Assembly: GCA_030605795.1 (NCBI GenBank)
Contig: JAUWHR010000005.1
Location: 338-64,337, forward strand
Reading direction: 5' to 3'
Length of the DNA: 64,000 bases
Origin: Anaerolineae bacterium
GTDB taxonomy: Bacteria; Chloroflexota; Anaerolineae; Anaerolineales; E44-bin32
Part shown: piece by piece, positions 16,905 to 33,615 of the stretch
Layout of the letters: every line of letters starts with the position of its first letter
How positions within the stretch are numbered: position 1 is the stretch's first letter
Translations under genes and position numbers: made by a program
Notes under the pieces: generated by a model
Databases searched by the model: none
Told to the model about the DNA's origin: nothing
What the model saw: only the letters and a program-made list of their open reading frames with translations

Positions 16905-16916
16905 GGTAAACGGGTT

Positions 16917-18260: not shown

Positions 18261-18323
18261 GCAAGGAAAGGAGAAGAAGTGGATATTGGAGAGAGAAAGT
18301 GAACTCCCTTATTCGGTGCCAGA

Positions 18324-18339
18324 CTACATTCGAATGTAG
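18324..18339. promoter_or_regulatory. Perfect 16-bp palindrome upstream of the ABC transporter genes
   Basis: CTACATTC|GAATGTAG, 30 nt upstream of the SBP start codon. Confidence 0.4.
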
Positions 18340-18369
18340 CTTGGCTGACAATCATGAGAGGAGAACCCT

Positions 18370-19665
18370 ATGAAAGCGCGTAACCTATTTGTCTTATCAA
18401 TGGTCATGTTGCTGTTGGCTGCTTGCAAGCCAGCTGTAACACCGACGGAGGCTCCACCGCCTGAGGGTGTCGAGTTGCGGTTCACGTACTACGCGGACGG
18501 CAACGAAGCTGATGAGATGCAGACCATTCTGGATCGTTTCATGGCTGAAAACCCCAGCATCACAGTCGTGCTCGACGTCGTACCCTACCAGACAATTGAC
18601 GAACAGTTGCCTGTGCAGGTGGAAACCGGGGAAGGCCCAGACATGGCGCGCATCACCAATTTTGGCGCTTACCGCGGTAAGTTGCTTGACCTGCGTCCAT
18701 ACCTGTCTGACCCAGGCTACTTCGAGAGCAATTTCCCGACGCCTGTGTTGGCAGCCATGCGGGCTGAGGGCGACGCCTCTGGCTTGCACGGCTTCCCGGA
18801 CAGCCTGACTGTGACCGGTCCGTACGTCAATAAGACTCTGTTCGATCAGGCGGGGATTGAGCTACCCGGCGATGCTTCCTGGGAGGAGTGGACCGAGCTG
18901 ACCCAGCAGGTAGCCGAAGCGACCGGCGTGCAGTACGCCATCTCGATCGACCGCACCGGTCACCGCTTCGCCGGCCCGGCGATGAGCATGGGTGCGACCT
19001 TGATCGATGCCAGCGGCAACTTCACGGTCGACACCCCTGGCTTCCGCGATTTCGCCGAAATCCTCATGGGCTGGCACGATGCAGGCATCACGCCGTCTGA
19101 GGTGTGGTTGATCGGCGACAGTCTCAACAGCTGCATCGACTTCTTCAAGAGCGGTGATCTGGTGATGTGCATGTCGGGGAGCTGGCAGATCAACGGCGTG
19201 GCCGGGGATGTGGGCGACGCCTTCGACTGGGTGGTCGTTCCCAACCCGACCGGTGCTGGCGGGAGCACGGGTGTGGCCGGTGGCGCGGGTGTGGTGGCCT
19301 TCGCTGACACCGAGCACCCCGAGGAAGTCGCTATGCTGATGGAGTTCCTCATCCAGGCGGAGAACTACGGCGCTTACTCGGCCGGCACCTTGTCGTTGCC
19401 TGCCCAGACGGAAGTCGCTTCCACCGGTGTGGACTTCGAGACCGACAACGCCTCAGTTCTCGGCGCGTTGTCAGCTTACACAGCGGAGATCCCCAAGCTG
19501 CAAGACCAGGCGGTGGCTTTGAACGTCCACCCGTTCGCCTTCGCCTACTACCGCAACAGCGCCAATCGTATCGCCCAATATCTCACTAGCGAGCTGTCGC
19601 TTGATGAAACCCTGCAACGCTTGCAACAGGATATCGACGACGCGATCGCTGAAGCAGGACAGTAA
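18370..19665 (+). CDS. Sugar ABC transporter substrate-binding lipoprotein
   Basis: 431 aa. Lipoprotein signal MVMLLLAAC. Family-1 solute-binding features (PDMARITNFG, GFPDSLTVTGPYVNKTLF). Confidence 0.85.
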   Translation: MKARNLFVLSMVMLLLAACKPAVTPTEAPPPEGVELRFTYYADGNEADEMQTILDRFMAENPSITVVLDVVPYQTIDEQLPVQVETGEGPDMARITNFGAYRGKLLDLRPYLSDPGYFESNFPTPVLAAMRAEGDASGLHGFPDSLTVTGPYVNKTLFDQAGIELPGDASWEEWTELTQQVAEATGVQYAISIDRTGHRFAGPAMSMGATLIDASGNFTVDTPGFRDFAEILMGWHDAGITPSEVWLIGDSLNSCIDFFKSGDLVMCMSGSWQINGVAGDVGDAFDWVVVPNPTGAGGSTGVAGGAGVVAFADTEHPEEVAMLMEFLIQAENYGAYSAGTLSLPAQTEVASTGVDFETDNASVLGALSAYTAEIPKLQDQAVALNVHPFAFAYYRNSANRIAQYLTSELSLDETLQRLQQDIDDAIAEAGQ

Positions 19666-19675
19666 TCCGATTTCT

Positions 19676-19715
19676 TTTACCATAGGGGCGCATTATGATG
19701 TGCCCCTATGGTAAA
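19676..19715 (+). promoter_or_regulatory. Intercistronic 14-bp perfect stem-loop
   Basis: TTTACCATAGGGGC-12 nt-GCCCCTATGGTAAA directly after the SBP stop. Plausibly an mRNA-stabilising or attenuating hairpin. Confidence 0.55.
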
Positions 19716-19727
19716 GATTATTTGATT

Positions 19728-20750
19728 ATGTCTGTACGCTCACTTTTCCTACCTATCAAATCAGTTGGCACTTTTATCAACTGTATTTTCTCTTCCATAC
19801 TAGATTTCTTCATTTCTGCCTTCGACGTTGTGTTTAGCATCCTGCAAAGATGGATTGGCATTCGCGGCATGCCTTATGTTTTCGCACTGCCGAATCTGCT
19901 CATATTTGGCATTTTTATCTTGTTTCCTATGCTGCTCAACTTTGTATATGCGTTCACGGGTGGCATAGAATTTTTCCCCGATCGGCGACCTTGGGTTGGG
20001 ACGGCTAACTTTGAACAGCTCTTGACCTGTGAAGATTTCATCGATCCAAATACCTGCTACGAGGATTTATTTTGGCGTGCTGTCTTCAACACATCAGGCT
20101 ATGTTATTTCACAAGTCGGTCTTATGGTGATCATTTCACTCATAACAGCACTGGTGCTTAACCGCAATATCAAGGCGCGGGGTTTCTTCCGTAGTGTTTA
20201 TTTCTATCCTGTACTCCTGTCGCCGATTGTTGTTGCACTTATTTGGAAATGGATTTTGCAGGAAAATGGTCTGCTTAACGGGAATATCGCTGGTTTGGGC
20301 TACGACAAGGTGCCCTTTATGGTCAATGCCCAATGGGCTCGTTTTTGGGTGGTGATTATCAGCGTGTGGGCGTTTATGGGGTTCTATACGTTGATTTTGC
20401 TGGCCGGTTTGCAGTCGATTCCATCGGAACTGTATGAAGCCGCTAAAATCGACGGTGCAAATGATTGGCAGTTGTTCCGTTGTATCACTTTGCCGCTCCT
20501 GATGCCCACTATGCTGGTTGTGCTGGTGCTGTCCTCGATTCGAGCAGTGCAGATATTCGACGTGGTATTTGCTTTTACGGGGGGTGGTCCGGGCACTGCA
20601 ACGCTATACCTCGTGCAATACATATATGAAAAAGGGTTCTCCAGCCCGTCGAAACAGTTCGGTCTCGCCGCAGGTGCCTCGTTACTCATGGCTGGGACGT
20701 TGATCGTATTGACACTGATTCAACTGCTTTTACGTCGTGAGGAGGCTTAG
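19728..20750 (+). CDS. Sugar ABC transporter permease (MalF/UgpA-like)
   Basis: EAA loop YEAAKIDGANDWQLFRCITLPLL. Multiple TM segments. ATG 19728 (after the hairpin) preferred over track start 19695. Confidence 0.85.
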   Translation: MSVRSLFLPIKSVGTFINCIFSSILDFFISAFDVVFSILQRWIGIRGMPYVFALPNLLIFGIFILFPMLLNFVYAFTGGIEFFPDRRPWVGTANFEQLLTCEDFIDPNTCYEDLFWRAVFNTSGYVISQVGLMVIISLITALVLNRNIKARGFFRSVYFYPVLLSPIVVALIWKWILQENGLLNGNIAGLGYDKVPFMVNAQWARFWVVIISVWAFMGFYTLILLAGLQSIPSELYEAAKIDGANDWQLFRCITLPLLMPTMLVVLVLSSIRAVQIFDVVFAFTGGGPGTATLYLVQYIYEKGFSSPSKQFGLAAGASLLMAGTLIVLTLIQLLLRREEA

Positions 20751-20756
20751 GTAGAT

Positions 20757-21809
20757 ATGAGCGCAGTTACAACATTTCTAGCACGTAGATGCGGCCACAC
20801 GAAACTAAACATCACAGACATCATCACCTACCTATACTTGTTTTTCGGTGTGGTTATCATGTTTGGACCTATATTATGGCTGGTGTTGTCTTCGTTTAAA
20901 ACTGCAGCTGAAGTCATCAAATTCCCCCCTCGTCTGTTACCCTATCGCCAAGACACCATTGTGGTCGAAGGGTATGACGATCCGCTTCCCTTGTTTGAAG
21001 TCACGCTTGATGACGGGTCCACAATCAAACTGGCGCAGGTGCGCCGCATTGGCCTGGAAGGGCAGATGATTGATCCAGCCAATCCTGGCGAAATCATAAA
21101 AGTCCACATCAACGACCGCAAACCGATCGAGTCTGTCGTCTTTGGTTTGGAAAATTACATTGAAGGCGTGCAAAGTTTTAACTTTGGAAGGTATCTCCGT
21201 AACAGTGTAGTTGTAACTGTATTTGCGACGATCTTGACGCTGCTTATCAACAGCATGGCAGCCTTTGCACTGAGCAAATACCGATTCCGAGGACGTACGA
21301 CGATCTTTCTTATCATGATCGGCACGCTCATGGTGCCCCTCTCTGTTGTTCTTGTGCCCGTGTTTTTGGTAATCACGAAGGTCGGCTGGAATAACAACCT
21401 GTTGGGTGTGATTGTGCCAGGTGCAGCCACGCCCACAGGCGTTTTCTTACTGCGGCAGTACATGCTCACCATCCCTGATGAGTTGATCGATGCGGCGCGT
21501 ATTGATGGCGCTAGCGAGTGGCGCATTTACTCACAAATTATTCTGCCGCTTGCACGCCCTGCTCTGGCCGTGTTGACAATCTTTTCGGTGATGTGGCGCT
21601 GGAACGACTTTCTCTGGCCCCTCATTGTATTAAGTCGTAGCGAGTTCTTCACCCTCCAAGTCGGCCTCAACTCATTCCAAGGTGAACTGAACGTCCAATG
21701 GCATCTGATCCTTGCCATGACGATGCTGACGTTGTTGCCGATTACGGTTGTGTTCGCCTTCTTGCAAAGGCATATCACAACGGGTATTGCCACAACGGGC
21801 TTAAAGTAA
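20757..21809 (+). CDS. Sugar ABC transporter permease (MalG/UgpE-like)
   Basis: 350 aa. EAA loop DAARIDGASEWRIYSQIILPLARPAL. An unusually long periplasmic insert after TM1. Confidence 0.85.
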   Translation: MSAVTTFLARRCGHTKLNITDIITYLYLFFGVVIMFGPILWLVLSSFKTAAEVIKFPPRLLPYRQDTIVVEGYDDPLPLFEVTLDDGSTIKLAQVRRIGLEGQMIDPANPGEIIKVHINDRKPIESVVFGLENYIEGVQSFNFGRYLRNSVVVTVFATILTLLINSMAAFALSKYRFRGRTTIFLIMIGTLMVPLSVVLVPVFLVITKVGWNNNLLGVIVPGAATPTGVFLLRQYMLTIPDELIDAARIDGASEWRIYSQIILPLARPALAVLTIFSVMWRWNDFLWPLIVLSRSEFFTLQVGLNSFQGELNVQWHLILAMTMLTLLPITVVFAFLQRHITTGIATTGLK

Positions 21810-21829
21810 ACGACCATAATCAAAACCAG

Positions 21830-23008
21830 ATGGCAGAAGGCATTTTTTCAAATCCCATTTCCATTCCTGTAGAGACAAAGAACGGCTCATTGTTGGCCGA
21901 GGAGAACCGCTTTATCTGCTTACCTGGGTGTGGTCTCTGCTGTTCCTATCGAGTTCTTCTGACCGAGGAGGACAAGCAGAGGTTGATGGCCGCCGGGTAT
22001 GTGAAGAAGGCATCGGAACTATGGGAGACGACCGCCAACAGCGGAACAGCCCTTTGTCGCACGCCAGATTTTTGTCTCTTCCTAGACCCGCAACAAAGGT
22101 GCGGCGCGTATGACTTCCGCCCGGAACAATGTCGCACCTATCCGTACCTGTGGACCAGTTACCTTCGAAAGGAACTGGATGTGGATTTAAGTTGTCCAGG
22201 GCTGGGGCAAGGTGAAAGTACTCCACTGGCATTGCACCAAATTCTGGGTGAGGGCTCGCCACGACTGTCACCGCTGGATGTAGCGATTGGGGAAATTCAT
22301 GCTTTGCTACGCTCCCATGGTTGCTACGCTACACCGGATGCACTTGTGGCAATGGGAATACAATGCATCGAGGAGCTCACTAAAAGTTGGACATCAAACC
22401 GCCATCGCGGGACAATGAGCCTATATGTGAGCCAACTGTCACCGCTACTCGAGAATGCTGAGAAAGGGGATGTTGCCACTAAACTATGGTCAGGTTTTCG
22501 CGTCATCCCTTGTTCCGTTGAGCAACTACTCGCAGACGCGAACTTCATAGGGCGGCATTTTTCGCGACCGCGCTGGAATACACGGCTTGAAAGCGATGGC
22601 TCGGTTGTGTTGTATCGATTCTGGATCTTGGATGGTATTCTTCATGTGAAGGATCGGGGCGAAACGCAACGGGAAATCTTACTAGCTGAAATCGAGGCGA
22701 TCGCCTGGAAAGCAGAGGCGCTTGCCACCCGCCGAGCATATCTCTATCGCTGGTTGAATCGGCAACTGTCGTTGCGCCTAGCGTACAATATGACTGTGGC
22801 CAACTTGATCCAGGGTAGTCATACAACGCTCTGCTACCTCGAATTCATCCTGGAGATTGACCACCGGCTGGTGGTGCTAGCCTCGGCGTTGGCACGAGCC
22901 GGTGGAAAGGATGAGATAGATCGTGAAGTCGCAATTGAGGCCATCCGCGGCAGCGATGGCTTGTTGCGGGCCTGGTGCGAAAGCGCCCGATTGGGCGTAA
23001 CAAACTGA
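21830..23008 (+). CDS. YkgJ-type Cys-rich (CxxCxxCC) zinc/iron-chelating domain protein with long C-terminal extension
   Basis: CLPGCGLCCSYRVLLTEEDKQRL..CRTYPY resembles the UPF0153/YkgJ domain. ATG 21830 preferred; track start 21698 lies inside the permease gene. Confidence 0.5.
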   Translation: MAEGIFSNPISIPVETKNGSLLAEENRFICLPGCGLCCSYRVLLTEEDKQRLMAAGYVKKASELWETTANSGTALCRTPDFCLFLDPQQRCGAYDFRPEQCRTYPYLWTSYLRKELDVDLSCPGLGQGESTPLALHQILGEGSPRLSPLDVAIGEIHALLRSHGCYATPDALVAMGIQCIEELTKSWTSNRHRGTMSLYVSQLSPLLENAEKGDVATKLWSGFRVIPCSVEQLLADANFIGRHFSRPRWNTRLESDGSVVLYRFWILDGILHVKDRGETQREILLAEIEAIAWKAEALATRRAYLYRWLNRQLSLRLAYNMTVANLIQGSHTTLCYLEFILEIDHRLVVLASALARAGGKDEIDREVAIEAIRGSDGLLRAWCESARLGVTN

Positions 23009-23017
23009 CAAATTGAA

Positions 23018-24211
23018 ATGACAGGAGGTCATCGTAGAATGAGTAATAAAACTATCACACGCCACATGCGCAAGATGAGTGCCTGGGAAAAGAATCTATT
23101 GGGGGTGACTGTCGACAAAGTCCCCACCCTGGTGCCAGGGCTGGTGGCCGCCATCCTACTCGCCTGGCTGAGCATCTGGTTGAGCAAGTTCATCGGTGTT
23201 ACGTTGCTGGATTTCGAAAAGACCCCTATTTCGCCGGTGATGTTGGCCATCCTTCTAGGTCTGATCATCAGCACGGTCATTCCGATGCCCAAGGTGCTTA
23301 AGCTCGGTCTCACCTTTGCCGTAAAAAAGGTCTTACGCCTGGGCATCATCATGCTGGGCATTCGCCTGACCATCTTTGACGTGTTCAAGTTGGGCGTATA
23401 CGGCGTGCCCATTGTCGTCATCTGCATTCTGGGCGCGCTTTTTTTCACTACCCGCATCAACAAGTGGTTCAAACTGCCCGAGCGGATGGGCACCCTCATT
23501 GCCGTCGGCACCTCCATCTGCGGTGTCTCGGCCATTGTCGCCACTGGCCCGGCTATCGAGGCCGAGGACGAGGAAGTGGCTTACGCCGTGGCGGTGATTA
23601 CCATTTTCGGGCTACTGGCGACCCTCGTCTACCCCTACGTCGCCCACGCGATCTTTGCTGGTAACGCGCTCAAGGTGGGACTCTTCCTGGGTACATCGAT
23701 CCACGACACATCTCAGGTGGTCGGTTCTGCGACGGTTTACACCGACGTGTTCTTGGCACCGCTGGCCCTCGACACGGCAACGGTCACCAAGCTGGTGCGC
23801 AATGTATTCATGGCCGCGGTAATCCCTTTCATGGCCCTCTACTACACACGCAAGACACAGGGCGAGTCGGCTGGCAAGAAGACCAACTTTCTCAAGCTGC
23901 TGCCCCTCTTCATCCTGGGGTTCCTGACCATTGCGGTGATCCGCTCCATCGGCGACGCCATGCTCAACACTGGTGGCAATGCCTTCGGGTTGTGGGATGC
24001 CGAAAGTTGGCACGACATCTATACCTTTGTCAAGATGTGGGCAGGATACTTTTTGGTCATAGCCCTAGCAGGCGTCGGGCTGAACACCAATTTCCGCACG
24101 TTCAAGGTATTGGGTATCAAGCCCTTCCTTGTCGGCCTAGGTGCAGCGTTGGTGGTCGGCATTATGAGCTATATCGCCATCTCCCTGCTGGGGAGTTTCG
24201 TGACGCTCTGA
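23018..24211 (+). CDS. yeiH: YeiH/UPF0324-family membrane protein (family often annotated as putative sulfate exporter)
   Basis: 397 aa, about 10 TM. LRLGIIMLGIRLT, IAVGTSICGVSAIVATGPAI and LGTSIHDTSQVVG align by eye with E. coli YeiH (LRLGIILYGFRLT, IGAGSSICGAAAVLATEPV, IGSTVHEVAQVV). Confidence 0.75.
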   Translation: MTGGHRRMSNKTITRHMRKMSAWEKNLLGVTVDKVPTLVPGLVAAILLAWLSIWLSKFIGVTLLDFEKTPISPVMLAILLGLIISTVIPMPKVLKLGLTFAVKKVLRLGIIMLGIRLTIFDVFKLGVYGVPIVVICILGALFFTTRINKWFKLPERMGTLIAVGTSICGVSAIVATGPAIEAEDEEVAYAVAVITIFGLLATLVYPYVAHAIFAGNALKVGLFLGTSIHDTSQVVGSATVYTDVFLAPLALDTATVTKLVRNVFMAAVIPFMALYYTRKTQGESAGKKTNFLKLLPLFILGFLTIAVIRSIGDAMLNTGGNAFGLWDAESWHDIYTFVKMWAGYFLVIALAGVGLNTNFRTFKVLGIKPFLVGLGAALVVGIMSYIAISLLGSFVTL

Positions 24212-24241
24212 CCTAATACGTAAACGGGAAGGAGTTTAGAC

Positions 24242-25258
24242 ATGGTTAAAGTAGGCGTAGTCGGTTTCGGTACTATCGGCGAGCGTATCGCCGACGGCAT
24301 CGCCAAGCAGAAAGATATGGAACTGGTCGGCGTGGTCGACGTGGCTCCTTCGCTACCGGTGCGCGCCTTGGTCGAGTCGGGCCGGGGGTATCCGATTTAT
24401 TGCAGCTTACCGGAGCGCATCCCGACGATGGAGCAGGCCGGTATCCCCATCACCGGGACGCTAGACGACCTGCTGGAGCAGGTGGACATGGTCTGCGACG
24501 CCACCTCGCCGGGCATCGGTATGAGGAACAAGGAGATCTATAAGAAGCACGGCGTCCCGGCCACGTTCCAGGGTGGGGAGAAGCACGAGATCAGCCCCAT
24601 CTTGTTCAGCAGCACAGCCAACTACGACGCGGCCAAGGACATAGATTACATCAAGCTGGTCTCCTGCAACACGACCGGAATCGTCCGGACTGTTGTGGCT
24701 ATGGACGACGCCTTTGGAGTGGAAAAGTCGGTGGCCACCATCGTCCGCCGCGCCGCCGACCCCTCGGAGATCCACAAAGGGCCGATTGACGCCGCTATTC
24801 CGAGCAAGGTTCCCGCGCACCAGGCCACCGACCTGATGCGGGTGTTGCCCCACGTGGACGCGATGGGCTTTGTCATCACTGTGCCCACCACCCACGGTCA
24901 CGTCATCGCCATGCACGTGACGCTGAAGAGCGAGATCACTACCGAGAACGCGCTGGAGGTGTTCCGCCAGGGACGGCGCATCTGCACCTTCCGCATGGAG
25001 GACGGCTTCCTGTCCAACACCCACATCTTTGACTACCTGCGCGACTTGGGCGTTCCCCGCGCCGACATGTACGAAGTCGGCATTTGGAAGGAAACGGTTC
25101 TGGCACGAGGCCGTGACCTGTACTGGATCCACAACATCCCCCAGGAGGCCATCGTCATCCCGGAGACCATCGACGCCATCCGCGCACGGATGGGCATGCA
25201 GGCCGACAAGTGGGACGCGGTGGATGCCACCGACCGCTACTTGGGCATTGCTAAGTAG
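24242..25258 (+). CDS. gap: Archaeal-type (type II) phosphorylating glyceraldehyde-3-phosphate dehydrogenase family
   Basis: 338 aa. VGFGTIGERIADGIAKQKDMELVGV, FQGGEKHE, catalytic VSCNTTG and IVRRAADP closely follow archaeal GAPDH, not the bacterial GapA pattern. Confidence 0.85.
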   Translation: MVKVGVVGFGTIGERIADGIAKQKDMELVGVVDVAPSLPVRALVESGRGYPIYCSLPERIPTMEQAGIPITGTLDDLLEQVDMVCDATSPGIGMRNKEIYKKHGVPATFQGGEKHEISPILFSSTANYDAAKDIDYIKLVSCNTTGIVRTVVAMDDAFGVEKSVATIVRRAADPSEIHKGPIDAAIPSKVPAHQATDLMRVLPHVDAMGFVITVPTTHGHVIAMHVTLKSEITTENALEVFRQGRRICTFRMEDGFLSNTHIFDYLRDLGVPRADMYEVGIWKETVLARGRDLYWIHNIPQEAIVIPETIDAIRARMGMQADKWDAVDATDRYLGIAK

Positions 25259-25281
25259 CAGCCGCCAGCTGGTTGGTTGAC

Positions 25282-26550
25282 ATGAGCCTGGAAGTTCTAA
25301 CCCTCGACGACTTTGAGCTGCAGGACCGGACCGTCTTGCTGCGGGTAGACATCAACTCGCCGGTGGACCGCCAGACGAAGGTCATCAAGGACGACACGCG
25401 CATCCGCCGTTGCCTACCGACCATTCGTGAGCTGGCCGAGCGCGGCGCGCGGACGGTAATACTGGCACATCAGGGGGACCCGCTCGACTACCAGAACTTT
25501 ACCCCGCTGGCCCAGCACGCCGAGTTGCTGTCTCAACTGCTGCAGCGATCGGTCGAGTACCTGGACGACGTGGCTGGGCCAGCGGCCCGCGAGCGCATCC
25601 GCGCCCTGCATGACGGCGAGATCCTCCTGCTCGAGAACGTGCGCATCCACACCGAGGAGACCATCATCTTCGAGGAGGAGGTGCGTCTCAGCCCGGCAGA
25701 ACAGGCGGATACCTATGTGGTGCGCAACCTGGCGCCCCTGGCTGACTTATATGTCTGTGACGCCTTTGCCGCCGCTCACCGTTCTGAACCGACGCTGACC
25801 GGATTCCCACAGGTCATGCCCGCTGCCGCGGGGAGGCTGTTCGAGGAGGAGCTGAGGGTGCTCACCCAGGTGCGGGGTCAACCCGAACGGCCTTGCCTAT
25901 TCTTGCTGGGAGGGGCGAAGATCCTCGACGCCTTCAAGATGATGCGTGCGGCTCTCGAATCGGGCACGGTCGATGGCTTGTTGACTGTCGGATTGACAGG
26001 CGAGATCATGCTCATCGCCGCGGGATACGACCTGGGTAAAAAAACATATGGTTTCCTAGAGTCGAAGAATTTACTTAGCTTTGTTGAACCATCTAAAGAA
26101 CTGCTTGACGCCTTCGGCGATCGCTTGCACTACCCGCTTGATGTGGCTGTAAAAAAAGACGAAGGCCGAGAGGAGCTCCTTTGCGATGGACTACCAGCAT
26201 CCGAGTTGATAGCAGACATTGGGCAACTTACGATCGAGGACTATCGAGCGCGAATCACCGCAGCGCAGACCATCTTTGTGAATGGCCCGGCTGGAGTCTA
26301 TGAAGAGGACCCCTTCGCCATCGGCACCCGCGCCCTGTGGGAGGCGATGGCGGCCTCGGATGCCTTCACTGTCATCGGCGGCGGAGATAGCATTGCCGCG
26401 GCCCGCAAGTTCGGCGTGTTGGATGGATTCTCCTATGTCTGCACAGCGGGTGGTGCTCTGGTGCGCTTCTTGGCCGGGGAGCCGCTACCGGTAGTCATCG
26501 CCTTGGAAGAAGCCGCCGTCCGGCATCGAGGGGAGGCTGGTGCGAGATGA
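25282..26550 (+). CDS. pgk: Phosphoglycerate kinase family, archaeal-like
   Basis: LTLDDFELQDRTVLLRVDINSPV..DDTRIRR..ILAHQGDP is the archaeal PGK N-terminal pattern. C-terminal GGGDS and TAGGA. Stop overlaps the next start (ATGA). Confidence 0.85.
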   Translation: MSLEVLTLDDFELQDRTVLLRVDINSPVDRQTKVIKDDTRIRRCLPTIRELAERGARTVILAHQGDPLDYQNFTPLAQHAELLSQLLQRSVEYLDDVAGPAARERIRALHDGEILLLENVRIHTEETIIFEEEVRLSPAEQADTYVVRNLAPLADLYVCDAFAAAHRSEPTLTGFPQVMPAAAGRLFEEELRVLTQVRGQPERPCLFLLGGAKILDAFKMMRAALESGTVDGLLTVGLTGEIMLIAAGYDLGKKTYGFLESKNLLSFVEPSKELLDAFGDRLHYPLDVAVKKDEGREELLCDGLPASELIADIGQLTIEDYRARITAAQTIFVNGPAGVYEEDPFAIGTRALWEAMAASDAFTVIGGGDSIAAARKFGVLDGFSYVCTAGGALVRFLAGEPLPVVIALEEAAVRHRGEAGAR

Positions 26551-27551
26551 ACAAGCTGACAAGTTGGCCGGAAACACGCGGTTTTCGCATCCTGGGGCTG
26601 ACCTATGGTCTCGCCTCAAACAATGGTGAGTTAATCCACAACCCGGTCCACTTCGAACCAGGTGAGATCTACACTCAGATCACCAACTGGGAGAAGCTAG
26701 AATATATTGATTATGGGCCAGGCATGAATGCCTATTGTCACCTGCTGGATGACCCTGATCTCCCATTCGAGATCATCGCCGATGAAAAAGAGCTATTCAT
26801 CCAGGGTGACCTAAGTCGCCTCGAACGAGATGGCAAGGATAAGCGTTGGAACATACTGGGGAACATTGGTATCTGGTTCCGCTACGCTTTGGCCACCCAG
26901 GAACGGCATGGCATCTATAGTTTCCATGCCTCGTCAATTTACAAGCCACAGGAAAACGAATTGCTGGTGATCGTTGGAAAAGGAGGGGTGGGGAAAACGG
27001 TCTACTTGCTTGAATCGCTTACCCAAAGCTATCAAATCTTCAGCACAGAGATGACTTACTTCCGGTACGTACCGGAGGGTGTGGTTTTCTACCGGGGTGC
27101 GCTGATGGATAACATTCGAGTGGGGAGTTTTTTATACGATTTCCCCGAGGCGGCAGAGCGCCTATGCCTGGATTTGCCACAAGTTGCAAATCCCTGGGAG
27201 GCCAAGATCAGCGTGGATATGCACTCGATAACGACTGCTAAGGATGAATTGCTCAACCCAAAGCTGTCCTTTATATTCCCCCGAATTGAGGCAGGGTACG
27301 AGCACTCGATTATAGAGAATGTAGCCCTTCCGCGAACGTTGACCCGGTTATTGTTTGATAGTGCTTCCGAAAAGATCGGTAGTACGATACTGATGTATGA
27401 GGAATTGCCAGCCGTTGGATTAGACACCCCTGCACTGGCCCAAGCCCGTTGGCAGGCGGTCTCGAGGTTGGTGGCTGCTCCCCAATGGGAAATCAAACAA
27501 GCCAGGAGGATCCTGGCTGGACCAAAATCCTGCATGGAAGGAATTGATTAA
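26547..27551 (+). CDS. HprK-like/PEPCK-like P-loop kinase-fold protein, substrate unknown
   Basis: 334 aa. FHASSIYKPQENELLVIVGKGGVGKTVYLLESL resembles the H-x-S..G-x-G-K-(S/T) core of HPr-kinase-related kinases. Coupled to pgk upstream and comA downstream. Confidence 0.45.
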   Translation: MNKLTSWPETRGFRILGLTYGLASNNGELIHNPVHFEPGEIYTQITNWEKLEYIDYGPGMNAYCHLLDDPDLPFEIIADEKELFIQGDLSRLERDGKDKRWNILGNIGIWFRYALATQERHGIYSFHASSIYKPQENELLVIVGKGGVGKTVYLLESLTQSYQIFSTEMTYFRYVPEGVVFYRGALMDNIRVGSFLYDFPEAAERLCLDLPQVANPWEAKISVDMHSITTAKDELLNPKLSFIFPRIEAGYEHSIIENVALPRTLTRLLFDSASEKIGSTILMYEELPAVGLDTPALAQARWQAVSRLVAAPQWEIKQARRILAGPKSCMEGID

Positions 27552-28353
27552 AATGGGTAAGAAAGCATGGGAAGGCGTGTTCAGCATGCCTCAACCAGGA
27601 CGCAGCATGAAGCCGCGCACCAACGGCTTCACGATGGTGTTGGACAAGGGTCTGGGCCGTTATCAAACCGAGGACCTTATGGCGACCGCCTCTGACTATA
27701 TCGACTTTGTGAAGTTCTCCTTCGGCACGTCGGCTTTCTATGACGAGCAGGTCCTACGCGAGAAGGTCGAGATCGTGACCGGCGCTGGCGTGGGCATTTA
27801 TCCCGGTGGAACGTTCCTGGAAGTGACCGTGTGGCAGGATAGTTATGCTGACTATCTGCGGCGCGCTAAGGAGTTGGGCTTCACTGCGATCGAGGTATCC
27901 GACGGCACATTGCAGATGTCAGACGAGGTGCGCGCCGACTGCATCAAGCGCGCCCTGGATGCCGGCTTCGAGGTCATCACCGAGGTGGGCAAAAAGAGTC
28001 CTGACGAGGAGGTGGCCGTGGCCGAGATGCACCGGCTCATTGCCCACGATCTGGACCTGGGGGCGCTCCTGGTCATCGTCGAGGCCCGCGAGGCCGGCAA
28101 GGGCGTGGGCATCTTCGACAAGTCCGGCGCGGTGAACGAGAGCCAGGTGGATCAGATTATCTCCGGTGTGGATGACCTAGACAAGCTGATGTGGGAAGCG
28201 CCGATCAAGAACCAGCAGCAGTACCTGATCTTGCGCTTCGGCAATAATGTCAACCTGGGGAATATCCCCACCACCGACGTGCTGGCCTTGGAGGCCTTGC
28301 GCCAGGGGTTGCGCGGAGACACACTCAAGCGGGCGTTGCAGCAGGGGTTGTAA
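27544..28353 (+). CDS. comA: (2R)-phospho-3-sulfolactate synthase ComA family
   Basis: Near full-length by-eye match to methanogen ComA: VLDKGL, DYIDFVKFSFGTSA, YPGGTFLE, GFTAIEVSDGT, EVGKK, EAREAGKGVGIFDK, NLGNI, LRQGLRGDT. The start may be ATG 27553. Confidence 0.85.
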   Translation: MIKMGKKAWEGVFSMPQPGRSMKPRTNGFTMVLDKGLGRYQTEDLMATASDYIDFVKFSFGTSAFYDEQVLREKVEIVTGAGVGIYPGGTFLEVTVWQDSYADYLRRAKELGFTAIEVSDGTLQMSDEVRADCIKRALDAGFEVITEVGKKSPDEEVAVAEMHRLIAHDLDLGALLVIVEAREAGKGVGIFDKSGAVNESQVDQIISGVDDLDKLMWEAPIKNQQQYLILRFGNNVNLGNIPTTDVLALEALRQGLRGDTLKRALQQGL

Positions 28354-28364
28354 CCACGTAGTGT

Positions 28365-28404
28365 GTATTGCGTGTTCCTTTACGCAATGTGCACTACGCA
28401 ATAC
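28365..28404. promoter_or_regulatory. Cluster of three TATTGCGT/ACGCAATA motif copies upstream of pfk-like gene
   Basis: GTATTGCGT (28365-28373), ACGCAAT (28382-28388) and ACGCAATAC (28396-28404). The outer copies form an inverted repeat. Confidence 0.4.
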
Positions 28405-28416
28405 GGAGCATAGTTC

Positions 28417-29661
28417 ATGAGCAAACCGTTACCCGACATCCTCGTTGTCGGCCAATCTGGCGGCCCAACGCCGGTGATCAACGCCAGCCTGGCGGGCGTG
28501 ATTAGTGAAGCGCAGAAGCACGATTGCTTCAGCGGCATCTACGGCCTGGTGCACGGTATCGAGGGCGCACTCAAGGAAGAGCTGCTCGATCTGAAGACTG
28601 AAACGGCCGCCAACCTCGAACTGCTGGCCCACACCCCGGCCTCGGCACTGGGATCCTGCCGTCACAAGTTATCCGACGACGACTATGACCGCATCCTGGA
28701 GGTCTTTGGCGGCCACAACGTGCGGCATTTCATCTACATCGGCGGTAACGACTCGATGGACACCTGTCACCGCATCGCGCAAGTGGCCGCTACATCTGGC
28801 TACGATATGCAGGTGATGGGTGTGCCCAAGACCATCGACAACGACCTGGCCTTCACTGACCACTGCCCCGGCTACGGTAGCGCAGCCCGCTTCCTGGCGC
28901 TGGCGACCCGTGATACTGGCCGCGACCTAGAAGCGATGGCGACCTTCGATGATGTGACTATCCTGGAGGCGATGGGACGTAACACCGGGTGGCTGACCGC
29001 TGCTTCTGTGCTGGGCAAGGAAACGGAGGATGAGGCCCCCCATCTTGTCTATGTGCCCGAGGTGCCTTTCGATGAACAGTGCTTCTTGGATGACGTGACC
29101 CGCGTCCACGACCGGTTGGGGTGGGTATTCGTTGTCGTCAGCGAAGGGATCCGGGATGCCGACGGCCAGTTTATCGGACAGCACAAGCTGAGAGGTGGCG
29201 GCAGCGATGCCTTTGGGCACGTCGTCCATTCCCTAACGACCGGTGTGGCTGCTTACCTCACAGACGTAGTCAGGGAAGGGTTAGGCTTACAAGCCCGTTT
29301 TCTACGTCCCAGCCTGATCGAGCGGGCGATGAGCGCCTGCGTATCCGAAACCGATCGGAAGGAGGCATGGCAGGTAGGCGTAGATGCTGTCACACACCTA
29401 GTTGCGGGTCGCAGCGGTTACATGGTCACGCTTGAACGCGTCTCGGATGATCCATATCATTGGGAAACCGGGCTAGCCTCATTGGATGAGGTCGCCAATG
29501 CCGAAAAGCTTCTCCCCAGTGATTTTATAAATAATGCCGGGGATATGCCCACCCAGCGCTTTAGGGATTATGGGCTACCGCTGATCGACGGCCCTCTATC
29601 GCACCTGGCCCGGTTGAGAGGGACACGGGTTCTAAAAAAAGTTAATCAAGGTACAGCTTGA
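28417..29661 (+). CDS. PfkA-family phosphofructokinase (ATP- or PPi-dependent, undetermined)
   Basis: 414 aa. GQSGGPTPVINAS, IGGNDSMDT and PKTIDNDL motifs. Confidence 0.85.
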   Translation: MSKPLPDILVVGQSGGPTPVINASLAGVISEAQKHDCFSGIYGLVHGIEGALKEELLDLKTETAANLELLAHTPASALGSCRHKLSDDDYDRILEVFGGHNVRHFIYIGGNDSMDTCHRIAQVAATSGYDMQVMGVPKTIDNDLAFTDHCPGYGSAARFLALATRDTGRDLEAMATFDDVTILEAMGRNTGWLTAASVLGKETEDEAPHLVYVPEVPFDEQCFLDDVTRVHDRLGWVFVVVSEGIRDADGQFIGQHKLRGGGSDAFGHVVHSLTTGVAAYLTDVVREGLGLQARFLRPSLIERAMSACVSETDRKEAWQVGVDAVTHLVAGRSGYMVTLERVSDDPYHWETGLASLDEVANAEKLLPSDFINNAGDMPTQRFRDYGLPLIDGPLSHLARLRGTRVLKKVNQGTA

Positions 29662-29768
29662 TTAATTAGGAATATCAATGCCTTCTTCTTACTCCCCCGT
29701 TGCTAGGGGTCATATGACCCAAATATAGACCCCCCCTAGCAGAATATAGCAATCGGAGGCAGCTAACC

Positions 29769-30812
29769 ATGTCAACAGAATATTCGCTTGGTGATTACAA
29801 ATTCAACCTGAAAGCTTTCTTCCCCGCTCGCATCTTTGAGATGATCACCGACATCCGAGTGGATAAGCCAGAGATCATCGAACAGCAAGCGCTGACCCGC
29901 AAACGTCGTCCGCGCCTGACGCGGGATGGCAAGCTCACCATTCTGGCGGCCGATCACCCCGCTCGTGGGGTCACTGTTATTGGAGACGACCCGTTCAAGA
30001 TGGGAAACCGTCACCAATACCTGGGGCGCATCCTGCGGGTGCTGATCGCCACCGATTTTGATGGTTTCATGAGCACAGCTGACATGATCGAGGACTTGAT
30101 CATTGTGGATTACCTGGTGCAAAAAGGTGGCGGACCTTCCTTCCTGGATGAAAAGGTGCTGATTGGCTGTATGCAGCGCGGAGGTGTCGCCGGAGTGGTC
30201 GGCGAACTAGACGATCGCTTCGGTTCGTATTCCGCCGAATCCATCGCCCGCTTCCGGCTGGATGGCGGCAAAATGATGTTCCGTTTTGTCCCCGACGACG
30301 AGCGCACACTGTGGCAGATTGACTACTGCTCTAAAGCCATCACCGACCTTTATCGTTATAACCTAGTACCCTTCGTTGAGCCGCTGCGCATGGATTACGT
30401 GGACGGCAAATGGGTCAGCAAGAACACAGCTGACGAGCTGGTCAAGCTGGTCGGAGTGATCGGCGGCATGGGCGATTCGTCACGCTGCACATGGATGAAA
30501 CTCCCCTACTGCCAGGATTTCCACCGGGTCACAATGGCGACAACCCAGCCCATCCTCATGTTGGGTGGGCCTTCCAAGGAGGATCCACGACATACTTATC
30601 GAGACTTTGCTGCCGGCATGGCAACCCGCAACAACGTGCGCGGCGCGCTAGTAGGTCGCAACGTCTCTTTCCCCGGATTTGATGACCCGGCTGCCATAGC
30701 CCAAGCAATCAACGAGATTGTCCACCGGGGGATTTCCGCCGACGAAGCCATTGAGGTAACATTAGGTCACCGGGATAAGAAAATAGATTTCCTGACAAGT
30801 TACATAACATAA
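29769..30812 (+). CDS. Class-I-aldolase-like (beta/alpha)8 protein (Cgl0159/DeoC-LacD-like family)
   Basis: 347 aa. LTILAADHPARG, CMQRGGVAG, ELDDRFGSY, DGGKMMFRF, FVEPL and WMKLPY match my recollection of the Cgl0159-family TIM-barrel pattern. Confidence 0.6.
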   Translation: MSTEYSLGDYKFNLKAFFPARIFEMITDIRVDKPEIIEQQALTRKRRPRLTRDGKLTILAADHPARGVTVIGDDPFKMGNRHQYLGRILRVLIATDFDGFMSTADMIEDLIIVDYLVQKGGGPSFLDEKVLIGCMQRGGVAGVVGELDDRFGSYSAESIARFRLDGGKMMFRFVPDDERTLWQIDYCSKAITDLYRYNLVPFVEPLRMDYVDGKWVSKNTADELVKLVGVIGGMGDSSRCTWMKLPYCQDFHRVTMATTQPILMLGGPSKEDPRHTYRDFAAGMATRNNVRGALVGRNVSFPGFDDPAAIAQAINEIVHRGISADEAIEVTLGHRDKKIDFLTSYIT

Positions 30813-30823
30813 AAGTAGAATGT

Positions 30824-30835
30824 GCGTATTGCGTA
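30824..30835. promoter_or_regulatory. Fourth copy of the TATTGCGT motif, upstream of the GH4 gene
   Basis: GCGTATTGCGTA at 30824-30835, in the 109-nt gap before 30922. Confidence 0.35.
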
Positions 30836-30921
30836 TCTCGAGCTTTACTCAATAAGAAAGGTGGAACTTAAACTAGCGACGAAATCCCGGCGATAAACCT
30901 CACAAACAATCGAGGTGAACA

Positions 30922-32313
30922 ATGGTAAGAACGCCCAAAATCGTCTGTATCGGCGCAGGGAGCGCTATATTCGGCCTGAGCAATATGGCCAGCATCGTTC
31001 GCAGCCCACGGTTGCGCGGCTCGGAATTAGTGCTAGTAGACATTGATGAAGCTGGTCTAAAAACGATGACCAGACTTGCCCAGATAATGAACGAGTCCTG
31101 GGACGCAGAAATGACAATTTCCGGCACGACCGAACGCGAGGAGGCGCTTCCCAACGCCGACTTCGTCGTGGTCTCGGTGCAGGTAGGTCAGCGGGAAGAG
31201 GTATGGGAGTTGGATTGGAAGATTCCCCTCAAACACGGCGTGCGCCAGCCCTACGCTGAGAACTCAGGACCGGGGGCCTTTGCCCACACAGCTCGCAACG
31301 CTCCCCTGATCCTCGCCATCGCACAAGATATGGAACGGCTGTGCCCAGATTCTTGGTTCCTCAACTTCACCAACCCCTTGATCCGGTTGACCTGGGTTGT
31401 GCAGCGCTATACCAAGATCAAGGTCGTCGGGCTCTGTCACCAATTGTTTTGGGCATATGCGATGGCCGCGACGGTGCTGGCAGATCGCTGGGGGCTGCAA
31501 ATTCCTGAGGGTTTTCATGTCCACACCAACTATGACAACGAGGCGAACCTCATTCCGGTGATCCTTGAAGGCCATAAACATATGGACATCAAGGCAGCGG
31601 GGCTAAACCACTTTTCGTGGGTGTACGATATCCGCGACAAAGAGACCGGAGAGGATCTTTACCCGCACCTGCGCGAGAGATGGCTCCAACATTACCGGCG
31701 AGACTTCGAACCACTGACGCGCGAGATGTTCGAGATCTTCGGCTTGATGCCCACCGCGGGCGACGCGCATATGTGTGAGTATCTTCCCTGGACACACGAT
31801 CCCCTCACCAAGCCCTGGGAAAAGTACAACCTAACCTTGCAGAGCTGGGAAGGCAACCGACGACGCCGCGCCGACCGCATTGCAAAGGCAGAAGCCATCG
31901 TGGCCGGGGAGCAGCCGGTGGATCAACTGAAAGATGCCATCAGCGAGGGTGTGCCGGAGATTGTTGAGGCGATCACCTTCAACGACAACCGCTACTACCA
32001 CCAACTTAACCTTCCGAACAACGGCCTGATTCCCAACCTACCCGACGACGCCATCGTCGAGGTGCCGGGCGTGATCTCCGGCTTCGGCATCAAGGGGTTG
32101 GGGGTCCCGCCTCTACCGGAAGGAATCGCCGAGCTCTGCCGTCGCGAGCTGGCGCTCAGCTCGCTTGTCGTAGACGCCGTGGTTCATGGCGACCAAGAGT
32201 TGGCTTTGCAGGCCCTGATGCTTGACCCAATAATGAACGACATTGACCGAGCAAGAGCCATCCTGGATGACTTCCTGATGACTTTCGCCGAATACCTTCC
32301 GCAATTCGCATGA
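30922..32313 (+). CDS. GH4-like NAD(+)/metal-dependent glycoside hydrolase
   Basis: 463 aa. N-terminal Rossmann KIVCIGAGSAIFG, LVLVDID, FLNFTNP and VGLCHQ, as in family 4 glycosidases. Confidence 0.75.
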   Translation: MVRTPKIVCIGAGSAIFGLSNMASIVRSPRLRGSELVLVDIDEAGLKTMTRLAQIMNESWDAEMTISGTTEREEALPNADFVVVSVQVGQREEVWELDWKIPLKHGVRQPYAENSGPGAFAHTARNAPLILAIAQDMERLCPDSWFLNFTNPLIRLTWVVQRYTKIKVVGLCHQLFWAYAMAATVLADRWGLQIPEGFHVHTNYDNEANLIPVILEGHKHMDIKAAGLNHFSWVYDIRDKETGEDLYPHLRERWLQHYRRDFEPLTREMFEIFGLMPTAGDAHMCEYLPWTHDPLTKPWEKYNLTLQSWEGNRRRRADRIAKAEAIVAGEQPVDQLKDAISEGVPEIVEAITFNDNRYYHQLNLPNNGLIPNLPDDAIVEVPGVISGFGIKGLGVPPLPEGIAELCRRELALSSLVVDAVVHGDQELALQALMLDPIMNDIDRARAILDDFLMTFAEYLPQFA

Positions 32314-32319
32314 CCTTGA

Positions 32320-33597
32320 ATGGAGGTCGTGTTGGAGTTCCGCATTCCCTACGGTAAAAACCACTTGAGCTTCCTTCTCCCCGATGGTTTGGAAATCGAG
32401 GTGGTGGAACCAGCAGAGACTCCCGCGGTTCCTGATCCCCTCGGTGAGGTAGAAGCAGCGCTTGCAGTACCAGTGGGCAGCGTCGACCTGATGGCTTTCC
32501 GCGGTGCCCGTTCTGTCGCCATCGCCATAAACGATAAGACCAGGCCGGTCCCCAACCAGCATCTCCTACCGCCTATGCTGGCGCGTCTTGAGGATCTCGG
32601 GTTGACGCCGAAAGCAATCCGTTTTATTGTCGCTACCGGCGTTCATTCCACGATGTCGCCGGAGGAATTTTTTAGCGTCCTCCCAGAGGAAATCCTCACT
32701 CGATATCTTGTAGGCTGTCACGACGCCGACGATCGCGGGAACCTGGTGCATCTCGGCACAACTTCGCGCGGCACTCCAGTGTGGGTCAACCGGTCCTTCG
32801 TGGAGGCCGATCTGCGGATTGTCGTGGGTAACATCCAACCACACCAATTCCAGGGCTTCACTGGTGGGGTCAAGGGTGCCGCCATCGGGTTGGCTGGGCG
32901 CGAGACCATCAATCACAACCACGCCATGATGGTCGATCCTGGCGCACTATTGGGGCACTTCGCCAATAACCCGGCTAGGCAAGATGTGGAAGAGATCGGC
33001 CAAAGGATCGGGGTTCACTTCGCCTTGAATGCTGTTCTGAACCAGGATAAGGAGATCGCGGCTGTCTTCGCCGGGGAACCGCGCGCAGTGCTGTTGAGAG
33101 GCATCCCCGTGGTCCGCAGACTTAGCCAAGTGCCTGTCAGTGAACCTTTCGATCTCGTTATCGCTTCACCCGGGGGTCACCCTGAGGACATAAACCTGTA
33201 CCAGTCGCAAAAGGCACTGGCCCACGCGGCCTTGGTCACCAGAGATGGCGGCACGGTGATCTTGGTCGCGGCCTGTCCCGAGGGGGTGGGAAGTATGAGC
33301 TACGAGCGGTGGGTGGAGGGAATGACCTCCCACGAATCCGTCATCCAGCGGTTCAAGCAAGAGGGCTTCCGCGTGGGACCGCATAAGGCCTTCCAGATCG
33401 CCAGAGACGCTGCGCGGTTGCGCGTGCTGGTAGTCTCCCAGATGCGCGCCAACTTGGTGAGACGGCTGCTGTTGACGCCGGCAAGCAGCCTCGACGAGGC
33501 AATATCCCAGACTCTGGGCACTATTCGGCGAGAGGCGCGCGTGGGTGTAATGCCTCGGTCTAGCGCCACCATACCGACGCTGGAAAAGATAGCGTGA
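32320..33597 (+). CDS. LarA-family (nickel-pincer cofactor) 2-hydroxyacid racemase/epimerase homolog
   Basis: 425 aa. INDKTRPVP, ATGVHSTMSPEE, QPHQFQGFTGGVKG and INHNHAMM align by eye with L. plantarum LarA (SDHTRPVP, ATGFHRPST, ESHFFAGFSGGRKS, MANHS). Confidence 0.7.
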   Translation: MEVVLEFRIPYGKNHLSFLLPDGLEIEVVEPAETPAVPDPLGEVEAALAVPVGSVDLMAFRGARSVAIAINDKTRPVPNQHLLPPMLARLEDLGLTPKAIRFIVATGVHSTMSPEEFFSVLPEEILTRYLVGCHDADDRGNLVHLGTTSRGTPVWVNRSFVEADLRIVVGNIQPHQFQGFTGGVKGAAIGLAGRETINHNHAMMVDPGALLGHFANNPARQDVEEIGQRIGVHFALNAVLNQDKEIAAVFAGEPRAVLLRGIPVVRRLSQVPVSEPFDLVIASPGGHPEDINLYQSQKALAHAALVTRDGGTVILVAACPEGVGSMSYERWVEGMTSHESVIQRFKQEGFRVGPHKAFQIARDAARLRVLVVSQMRANLVRRLLLTPASSLDEAISQTLGTIRREARVGVMPRSSATIPTLEKIA

Positions 33598-33615
33598 AAC
33601 CAAGGAGCACTTCCA

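Follow-up and report, generated by a model that had tools for sequence, protein, structure and literature searches.

The window analysed here is a 64,000-nt stretch of contig JAUWHR010000005.1 (assembly GCA_030605795.1) from Anaerolineae bacterium (GTDB lineage Chloroflexota; Anaerolineae; Anaerolineales; E44-bin32), and all coordinates of the window are positions within it. To judge from its sequence and gene context, a kinase-like open reading frame (ORF) of 334 aa (26547-27551, + strand in the ORF listing), located immediately upstream of a ComA gene, probably encodes a sulfolactate 2-kinase that primes a ComA-catalysed elimination to phosphoenolpyruvate (PEP) and sulfite. The enzyme would transfer phosphate, most likely from ATP, onto the 2-hydroxyl of 3-sulfolactate, yielding 2-phospho-3-sulfolactate and ADP. 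ComA, operating opposite to its direction in coenzyme M synthesis, would then convert 2-phospho-3-sulfolactate to PEP and sulfite by an enolase-like beta-elimination, the sulfite counterpart of enolase chemistry. The sulfite would leave the cell through a YeiH/SuyZ-type exporter, and pyruvate kinase would convert PEP to pyruvate with formation of ATP. The net reaction of kinase, ComA and pyruvate kinase would be that of SuyAB, reached via PEP.

The protein family and its linkage to ComA

The ORF is a real gene, far beyond chance, because it belongs to a large full-length family and yields a confident AlphaFold2 model (predicted local distance difference test score, pLDDT, 94.1; predicted TM-score, pTM, 0.91; 58-sequence alignment). 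A word-indexed search with the protein returned 252 clusters at 90% identity (E<=1e-3), the best 120 of which were full-length, 63-98% identical to the query and all labelled "hypothetical"; the named sources among these close clusters were Anaerolineae or Chloroflexota metagenome-assembled genomes (MAGs). An exhaustive search with HMMER through 1.8 billion representative sequences yielded 134 clusters at 50% identity, of which 56 had E<=1e-30, and took the family down to about 20% identity; its distant sources include a Deltaproteobacteria MAG and Candidatus Atribacteria. Assignment to a known family by sequence failed: no Pfam or NCBIfam model matched at E<=0.01, and sequence searches of the PDB (phmmer and profile) gave P-loop-level matches only, none of them significant.

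The strongest evidence on the function of this family is its linkage to ComA, which was followed in 12 loci (numbered L001 onwards, together with further loci cited below) from one-genome-per-species Chloroflexota (GTDB) and in a separate set of 401 genomes drawn evenly from the phylum. In 11 of the 12 loci, the kinase-like gene is followed directly by ComA. An earlier, sequence-only reading of the window had proposed co-occurrence with comA as a check, and the statistics bear it out: the kinase-like family is present in 17 of the 401 genomes, and ComA accompanies it in all 17, compared with 63 of 401 overall. These genomes contain 19 family copies. For 15 of them, a same-strand ComA gene follows within 500 nt; of the remaining four, one is separated from ComA by a pyruvate kinase gene only, two have ComA within 10 kb, and one lies at a contig end. 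The arrangement extends to relatives of 25-45% identity. ComA lies immediately downstream of 38-42% identical homologs on all five metagenomic contigs and is the next gene for two of four very distant members, giving seven of nine distant metagenomic contexts in total.

The two other very distant members have different partners. The third (L068, 8001-9945) overlaps a gene of the Ldh_2 family, that of the ComC sulfolactate dehydrogenase, with no ComA nearby, and the fourth has a partner other than ComA. L068 suggests that kinases of other, related 2-hydroxyacids may belong to the family as well. At another locus (L070, 8001-11710), a distant kinase member and ComA are followed by a split transketolase, whose N and C halves are separate genes, and by two nucleoside-hydrolase-like genes and an ABC sugar importer, under a GntR regulator; this locus may represent another sulfosugar route ending in a kinase-ComA module.

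The Ldh_2 pairing bears on a further explanation, in which the protein phosphorylates an acid of similar shape, such as malate, glycerate, lactate or enol sulfopyruvate, and ComA acts on the product or independently. 2-Hydroxyacid dehydrogenases are frequent neighbours of the family, and the LarA-type neighbour in the window scores as a malate racemase (NF052595), both of which would suit such a kinase. However, the window ComA exceeds the cut-off of the phosphosulfolactate synthase equivalog TIGR03849 (348 bits against 280), sulfur-specific neighbours (Dsr, YeiH/SuyZ) recur, and we know of no enzyme that uses 2-phosphomalate or a similar compound. We therefore consider this alternative very unlikely.

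The converse of the linkage fails, as 46 of the 63 ComA-bearing genomes lack the kinase-like family. Compared with the window ComA, the ComA-like genes of these 46 genomes are much more divergent (23-40% identity), and their partners are ComB, MmgE/PrpD-like genes, or glyoxalase-fold and AMP-binding genes. A distinct "catabolic" ComA clade was considered and not adopted: a single branch splits 24 kinase-linked sequences from 18 others, with weak support (ultrafast bootstrap, UFboot, 37; SH-aLRT 81). A divergent ComA-like clade, at about 25% identity to the window ComA, was encountered in eight loci (L048, L049, L052, L053, L055, L058, L059 and L067). In most of these, a 450-490-aa gene adjoins the ComA-like gene; the one tested (L049) belongs to the MmgE/PrpD family, and the combination is apparently a different and undescribed gene pair. 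In L058, a GH4 homolog lies 3.5 kb from the ComA-like gene. In genomes of genus g78 (G238 and others; L064), the kinase-linked ComA is accompanied, far away from it, by another, divergent paralog with about 34% identity to the window ComA.

Fold and catalytic residues

In a Foldseek search of the PDB with the model, the top 50 matches were all ATP- or GTP-type PEP carboxykinases (PEPCKs), with a best E of 1.2e-9, probability 1.0, and about 350-420 aligned columns across the matches, and the similarity was driven by the C-terminal P-loop domain. A fold search had been suggested earlier as a means of exposing a non-kinase family; its outcome was the opposite, the matches being small-molecule phosphotransferases. 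The HprK/PEPCK-like P-loop core first read from the motif FHASSIYK...LLVIVGKGGVGKTVYLLESL (residues 126-159) is thus recovered at the level of fold, with weak matches at the level of sequence. PEPCK_ATP (PF01293) was the Pfam family most frequently matched below threshold, by 10 of 44 family members (best E 1.1e-4), and Hpr_kinase_C was matched in this way by three of the 44. In the model, a P-loop phosphotransferase domain of PEPCK/HprK type, its catalytic set complete, is joined to a family-specific N-terminal domain, and the P-loop domain is the only part that appears clearly common to the protein and PEPCK. The N-terminal domain had previously been described as unassigned, and residues 1-122 folded alone (pLDDT 86) indeed gave no significant PDB neighbour (best E 0.41). 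Equivalence with the N-domain of PEPCK is not claimed, the fold search with the isolated domain having given no significant match. The elements of the gene are located as follows.

26547..27551, + strand: the complete gene, a 334-aa member of a PEPCK/HprK-fold P-loop family, proposed sulfolactate 2-kinase
26547..26912, + strand: N-terminal domain, residues 1-122, mostly beta, from the secondary structure of the models and conservation
26925..26927, + strand: codon of His127, aligned with the Mn-ligand His of ATP-PEPCK
26976..26999, + strand: Walker A/P-loop G144-K-G-G-V-G-K150-T151, family consensus GxxGxGK[TS]
27048..27050, + strand: codon of Glu168, 18 residues past the P-loop Lys
27447..27449, + strand: codon of Arg301, 98% conserved, inferred to be a candidate ligand for an anionic group

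Residue conservation was derived from 83 family representatives at 60% identity. H127 (83 of 83), K150 and T/S151 are conserved at 100%, E119, G144 and G149 at 99%, R301 and G105 at 98%, and position 168 at 97% (E 89%, D 8%), followed by N189 (92%) and by K276 and N25 (both 89%). Within the N-terminal domain, conservation is found at S24-N25-N26, G87, D98-x-R100, G105-N106-x-G108 and E119. Arg301 is a candidate ligand for a carboxylate, sulfonate or phosphate group.

A normal PckA gene lies elsewhere in the same genome, and in an hhalign comparison with it H127 pairs with the metal-binding His of PEPCK and the P-loops pair with each other. By eye, Glu168 is the positional counterpart of PEPCK Asp269 and of the HprK DD motif. 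ATP-PEPCK (PckA, PF01293) is the best structural match. In both proteins a His precedes the P-loop Lys by about 22-23 residues, the loop reads GxxGxGK[TS], and an acidic residue comes after it. The protein described here is about 200 residues shorter and shows no significant sequence similarity to ATP-PEPCK. PEPCK phosphorylates O2 of the enolate derived from oxaloacetate, and sulfopyruvate and sulfolactate are the sulfonate analogues of oxaloacetate and malate. The fold supports a sulfolactate kinase. In both cases, a 3-4-carbon acid with a distal anionic group would gain or lose phosphate at O2. The proposed reaction would differ in proceeding without decarboxylation and in having an alcohol, rather than an enolate, as acceptor.

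Two variants of this chemistry were rejected. A PEPCK-like "desulfo-kinase" acting on sulfopyruvate must expel SO3 and makes ComA superfluous, and it is also disfavoured by PDB titles according to which PEPCK has been crystallised with sulfopyruvate bound. The ATP-forming reverse reaction, from phosphosulfolactate and ADP to sulfolactate and ATP, was set aside by inference on energetic grounds, the phosphate being a simple ester.

Similarity to HprK/P (PF07475) raises a different prospect, namely an HprK-type protein kinase or regulator acting on HPr or on an operon enzyme. The two have the superfamily core in common and agree closely in the local pattern H...GxxGxGK[ST]-helix-RGxx[LI][VF]x[DE]; by eye, the residues that follow the P-loop (GKT-VYLLEAL-x-RGYQIFSTE) resemble GKSE...RGHxLVADD of HprK/P more than PEPCK. 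Such a role would also agree with the sub-threshold Hpr_kinase_C matches and with the genome at large, in which two HPr genes are present and a search with PF07475 found no canonical HprK. That search did not retrieve the ORF either. The residue targeted by HprK/P is Ser46 of a protein, and that enzyme has another N-terminal domain and serves phosphotransferase system (PTS) and CcpA regulation, whereas the protein described here has a family-specific N-terminal domain, no hidden Markov model match, no HPr gene nearby and a constant link to ComA, which it keeps across several phyla whatever its other neighbours. Its top 50 structural matches are PEPCK and not HprK, and no PTS genes were seen beside the family in the related loci examined. 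The earlier statement that HPr context is lacking stands locally, there being no HPr gene in the window, but does not hold for the genome, where both HPr genes lie on contig C87; the argument that a lack of HPr excludes an HprK is accordingly weakened. On balance, a protein kinase of this type is highly improbable.

HprK/P can use pyrophosphate (PPi), and the sulfolactate pathway could in principle run with the same acceptor and PPi in place of ATP as donor, which would make desulfonation free of ATP cost. The HprK-like local motif GK[TS]-helix-RGxx[IL][FV][ST][ED] is present, the protein is much shorter than PEPCK with no adenine-binding region identified, the phosphofructokinase (PFK) of the operon belongs to a PPi-dependent subfamily (NF010675, 482 bits), and the PPi-handling pyruvate phosphate dikinase (PPDK) is encoded upstream of the family in L013 and L018. 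Conversely, enzymes that use Mg-NTP typically have a Walker A motif of this kind, with its conserved T/S151, and an acidic residue such as that at position 168; the PEPCKs that head the structural matches depend on nucleotides; and the extra GAPDH and PGK of the operon would neatly repay an ATP-dependent step. ATP thus remains the favoured donor, and PPi is unlikely.

Recurrent neighbours and the direction of the pathway

Recurrent neighbours point to the breakdown of sulfolactate rather than its synthesis, because consumers of PEP, consumers or exporters of sulfite, suppliers of sulfolactate and a racemase adjoin the kinase-ComA pair. With regard to PEP, a pyruvate kinase gene is inserted between kinase and ComA in L045 (TctA ... 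2-hydroxyacid dehydrogenase - LarA - kinase - pyruvate kinase - ComA) and lies just upstream of ComA in L046 and L047, while PPDK is directly upstream of the family in L013 and L018; the genome containing the window also has pyruvate kinase. With regard to sulfite, L015 and L016 have DsrAB, a CbiA-family (DsrN-type) gene, DsrC and dsrMKJOP-like membrane-complex genes (NrfD and ferredoxin families) next to the pair, and L017 has DsrAB there. YeiH is encoded directly upstream of the kinase-like gene, or of gap-pgk-kinase, in 10 of the 12 related loci; it belongs to the PSE family, whose definition goes back to SuyZ from the sulfolactate sulfo-lyase cluster and for which sulfite export is the function now assumed (PMC11582611). 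Supply of sulfolactate is suggested by TctCBA (tripartite tricarboxylate transporter, TTT) genes in L013, L014, L018 and L045, the sulfolactate importer SlcHFG being a member of this transporter family (PMC5812351). Aldehyde dehydrogenase genes (Aldedh, similar to sulfolactaldehyde dehydrogenase) occur in L017, L018 and L046, D-2-hydroxyacid dehydrogenases in most of the distant contexts, and archaeal-type GAPDH together with PGK in the window, L001, L003 and L004.

A LarA-family gene recurs beside the kinase or ComA in the window and in L001-L003, L007, L040, L045 and L046. Its presence fits a known enantiomer mismatch, because sulfoglycolysis gives (S)-sulfolactate and ComA makes or uses a (2R) compound; the need for stereochemical processing of sulfolactate has been stated (PMC13436972). 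The LarA-type racemase would convert (S)-sulfolactate from sulfoglycolysis into the (R)-form required by ComA chemistry. Taken with the PEPCK fold predicted by the model and the co-occurrence with ComA, these catabolic neighbours (pyruvate kinase, PPDK, DsrAB, YeiH, TTT, LarA) favour the earlier suggestion of a small-molecule 2-hydroxyacid kinase.

The direction of the pathway is also where the most serious rival must be weighed, in which the protein replaces ComB. Phosphosulfolactate would lose its phosphate through hydrolysis or, in the manner of HprK/P, through phosphorolysis that yields PPi, and the pair would make sulfolactate from PEP and sulfite for biosynthesis or sulfite detoxification. 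Synthesis is the sole characterised direction of ComA, and HprK/P, a P-loop enzyme that dephosphorylates too, provides a precedent. ComB was not found in the kinase-bearing genomes tested, namely that of the window (81% complete) and five closed genomes of another genus, while ComB partners ComA genes that lack the kinase in the same phylum (L065, L066), so that the two partners appear mutually exclusive. The protein itself does not match ComB (PF04029), although true ComB genes were recognised beside other ComA genes. Against replacement, a pyruvate kinase that removes PEP is inserted in or beside the pair, and DsrAB/C, importers, sugar-catabolic genes and a racemase are needless for synthesis. 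Moreover, searches of the 81%-complete genome for sulfate-to-sulfite genes yielded neither a PAPS/APS reductase nor an ATP sulfurylase, and sulfite reductase was found neither there nor in the five closed pair-carrying genomes. ComB replacement is therefore unlikely, slightly more so than the PPi variant; kinases for another acid and HprK-like proteins are less likely than either.

Compared with the ComA-ComB-ComC route of methanogen coenzyme M biosynthesis and with bacterial ComA/ComB pairs, the proposed sulfolactate 2-kinase pathway would share the intermediate 2-phospho-3-sulfolactate and the ComA family. It would differ in its reversed direction and in that the kinase makes the phosphoester that ComB removes.

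The operon in the window

The ORF had been described earlier as wedged between pgk and comA, and this placement holds, with PF00162 matched upstream and PF02679/TIGR03849 downstream. Its ATG overlaps the TGA of the PGK gene (ATGA at 26547-26550), and its TAA stop (27549-27551) is separated by a 1-nt gap from the ComA ATG at 27553. The surrounding genes are listed below.

15657..23008, + strand: ROK regulator, FucI-like isomerase, ABC sugar importer (substrate-binding protein and two permeases) and CxxCxxCC protein (Pfam)
23018..24211, + strand: YeiH/PSE-family transporter (SuyZ-like), proposed sulfite exporter (PF03601, TIGR00698)
24242..25258, + strand: extra archaeal-type (type II) phosphorylating GAPDH paralog (NF003251, 400 bits)
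25273..26550, + strand: extra divergent PGK paralog, translationally coupled to the kinase-like gene (PF00162, E 4e-111)
27553..28353, + strand: ComA, (2R)-phospho-3-sulfolactate synthase homolog (PF02679, E 2e-91; TIGR03849)
28417-29661, + strand: PPi-PFK-like kinase (PPi-dependent subfamily NF010675)
29769-30812, + strand: Cgl0159-like class I aldolase (Pfam/NCBIfam matches)
30922-32313, + strand: GH4 NAD-dependent glycosidase (Pfam/NCBIfam matches)
32320..33597, + strand: LarA-family nickel-pincer 2-hydroxyacid racemase, malate-racemase LarAH5 type (NF052595, 549 bits)

The PFK-like, aldolase and GH4 genes (28417..32313) are conserved in L002 and L003, and the block at 15657..23008 is partially conserved in L001, L007 and L011. 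A housekeeping gap-pgk pair lies on contig C95 of the same genome; the GAPDH and PGK of the operon are extra copies.

From this gene content, the GH4 glycosidase, isomerase, PPi-PFK-like kinase and aldolase would convert a sulfosugar, probably sulfoquinovose, to dihydroxyacetone phosphate and sulfolactaldehyde. Oxidation of this aldehyde to sulfolactate by the extra archaeal-type GAPDH and PGK would yield one ATP, repaying the kinase step. It is quite possible, if short of probable, that the operon constitutes a complete "sulfo-lower-glycolysis", consisting of GAPDH/PGK oxidation with ATP gain, LarA racemisation, the kinase, and ComA as a sulfite-eliminating "enolase", by which a single anaerobic Chloroflexota cell would mineralise a sulfosugar and harvest all six of its carbons. 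According to recent reviews, known sulfoglycolytic organisms carry out no such full mineralisation (PMC12890257, PMC13436972).

Several further features of the region were observed. The CxxCxxCC protein (21698-23008, + strand, 436 aa) combines an N-terminal CxxCxxCC domain (PF03692, YkgJ-like) with a long remainder that has no assigned family; L001 and L004 have homologs of it (45-51% identity) at the position flanked by the ABC permease and YeiH. Downstream of larA, a glycerol kinase gene (33616-35127) is broken by in-frame stops into three ORFs, the first of 87 aa; the initial sequence reading reported two TAG codons. The G+C content is 0.54-0.61 across 24000-34000, compared with about 0.48-0.53 in the window flanks. 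A Tn3-type transposase fragment (DUF4158, 12484-13815) lies upstream of the operon, and recombinase and integrase genes lie downstream of it according to the initial sequence reading. The kinase family was found in none of 33 sampled genomes of the same order. Together, the G+C contrast, the transposase fragment, the recombinase and integrase genes and the absence from these 33 genomes suggest that the operon was horizontally acquired.

Comparison with known sulfonate routes

Clusters of the (R)-sulfolactate sulfo-lyase SuyAB (with SlcHFG, the SlcC/ComC "racemase" and SuyZ) would share with the proposed route the net conversion of sulfolactate to a C3 acid and sulfite, the requirement for the (R)-enantiomer, and as neighbours a TTT importer (in relatives of the kinase) and a YeiH/SuyZ exporter. 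The enzymes cleaving the C-S bond are nevertheless unrelated; the proposed route would spend ATP (or PPi) and give PEP rather than pyruvate, and a LarA-type racemase would replace the two-dehydrogenase racemase. The operon also resembles those of the sulfoglycolytic Embden-Meyerhof-Parnas pathways (sulfo-EMP and sulfo-EMP2) in combining glycosidase, isomerase, kinase, aldolase and an ABC importer. The families differ, being GH4, FucI-like, PFK-family and Cgl0159-like in the window, where none of the sugar genes belongs to the characterised YihQ/S/V/T families. Known pathways of the sulfo-EMP type excrete 2,3-dihydroxypropane-1-sulfonate (DHPS) or sulfolactate (PMC12890257, PMC13436972), whereas the pathway proposed for the window would gain ATP from the oxidation of sulfolactaldehyde and carry out desulfonation in the same cell.

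Two 2026 reviews give SuyAB, Xsc, CuyA and glycyl-radical enzymes as desulfonation routes, and ComA is unmentioned in them (PMC12890257, PMC13436972). In the literature searched, in which subscription journals were incompletely covered, the term "sulfolactate kinase" was absent, phosphosulfolactate synthase was never combined with desulfonation, and sulfoquinovose and phosphosulfolactate were mentioned together only where ComA appeared in reference lists. This agrees with the earlier remark that no enzyme had been assigned to sulfolactate phosphorylation. Sulfolactate breakdown by a kinase and a ComA running in reverse would have no counterpart in that literature.

A number of observations weigh against the sulfolactate 2-kinase proposal. 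ComA is known only for the reaction of PEP and sulfite to phosphosulfolactate, and its reversibility is assumed by analogy with enolase. Structural similarity to PEPCK is modest in extent, with a query-normalised TM-score of 0.45-0.54 and a root-mean-square deviation of about 8 A. The lysines of the PEPCK YGGEMKK motif are not conserved in a by-eye alignment to PckA of the same genome; the corresponding position in the family reads [FL]GNxG, and the nearby basic residue 112 is variable. The N-terminal domain, not recognisably PEPCK-like, is without a structural neighbour, and the substrate site is not readable from homology. Locus L008 is the exception among the 12 loci, beginning at the kinase-like gene and continuing into PNPase with no adjacent ComA, and the two very distant members with other partners likewise lack ComA. 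The role of the sugar genes and of GAPDH/PGK is read from gene content, with the sugar assignment tentative. Finally, the genome is a MAG that is 81% complete, and absences from it carry little weight.

Significance

Sulfoquinovose ranks among the most abundant organosulfur compounds, as do the C3 compounds formed from it, sulfolactate and DHPS. If the proposal is correct, the kinase-ComA pair would represent a new, oxygen-independent route of C-S cleavage yielding PEP, and many ComA genes of bacteria, like the large family of "hypothetical" proteins, would acquire a function. The supply of sulfite to Dsr in uncultured sulfite reducers would be explained as well, and the window would link the kinase-ComA route to a full sulfosugar operon in Anaerolineae.

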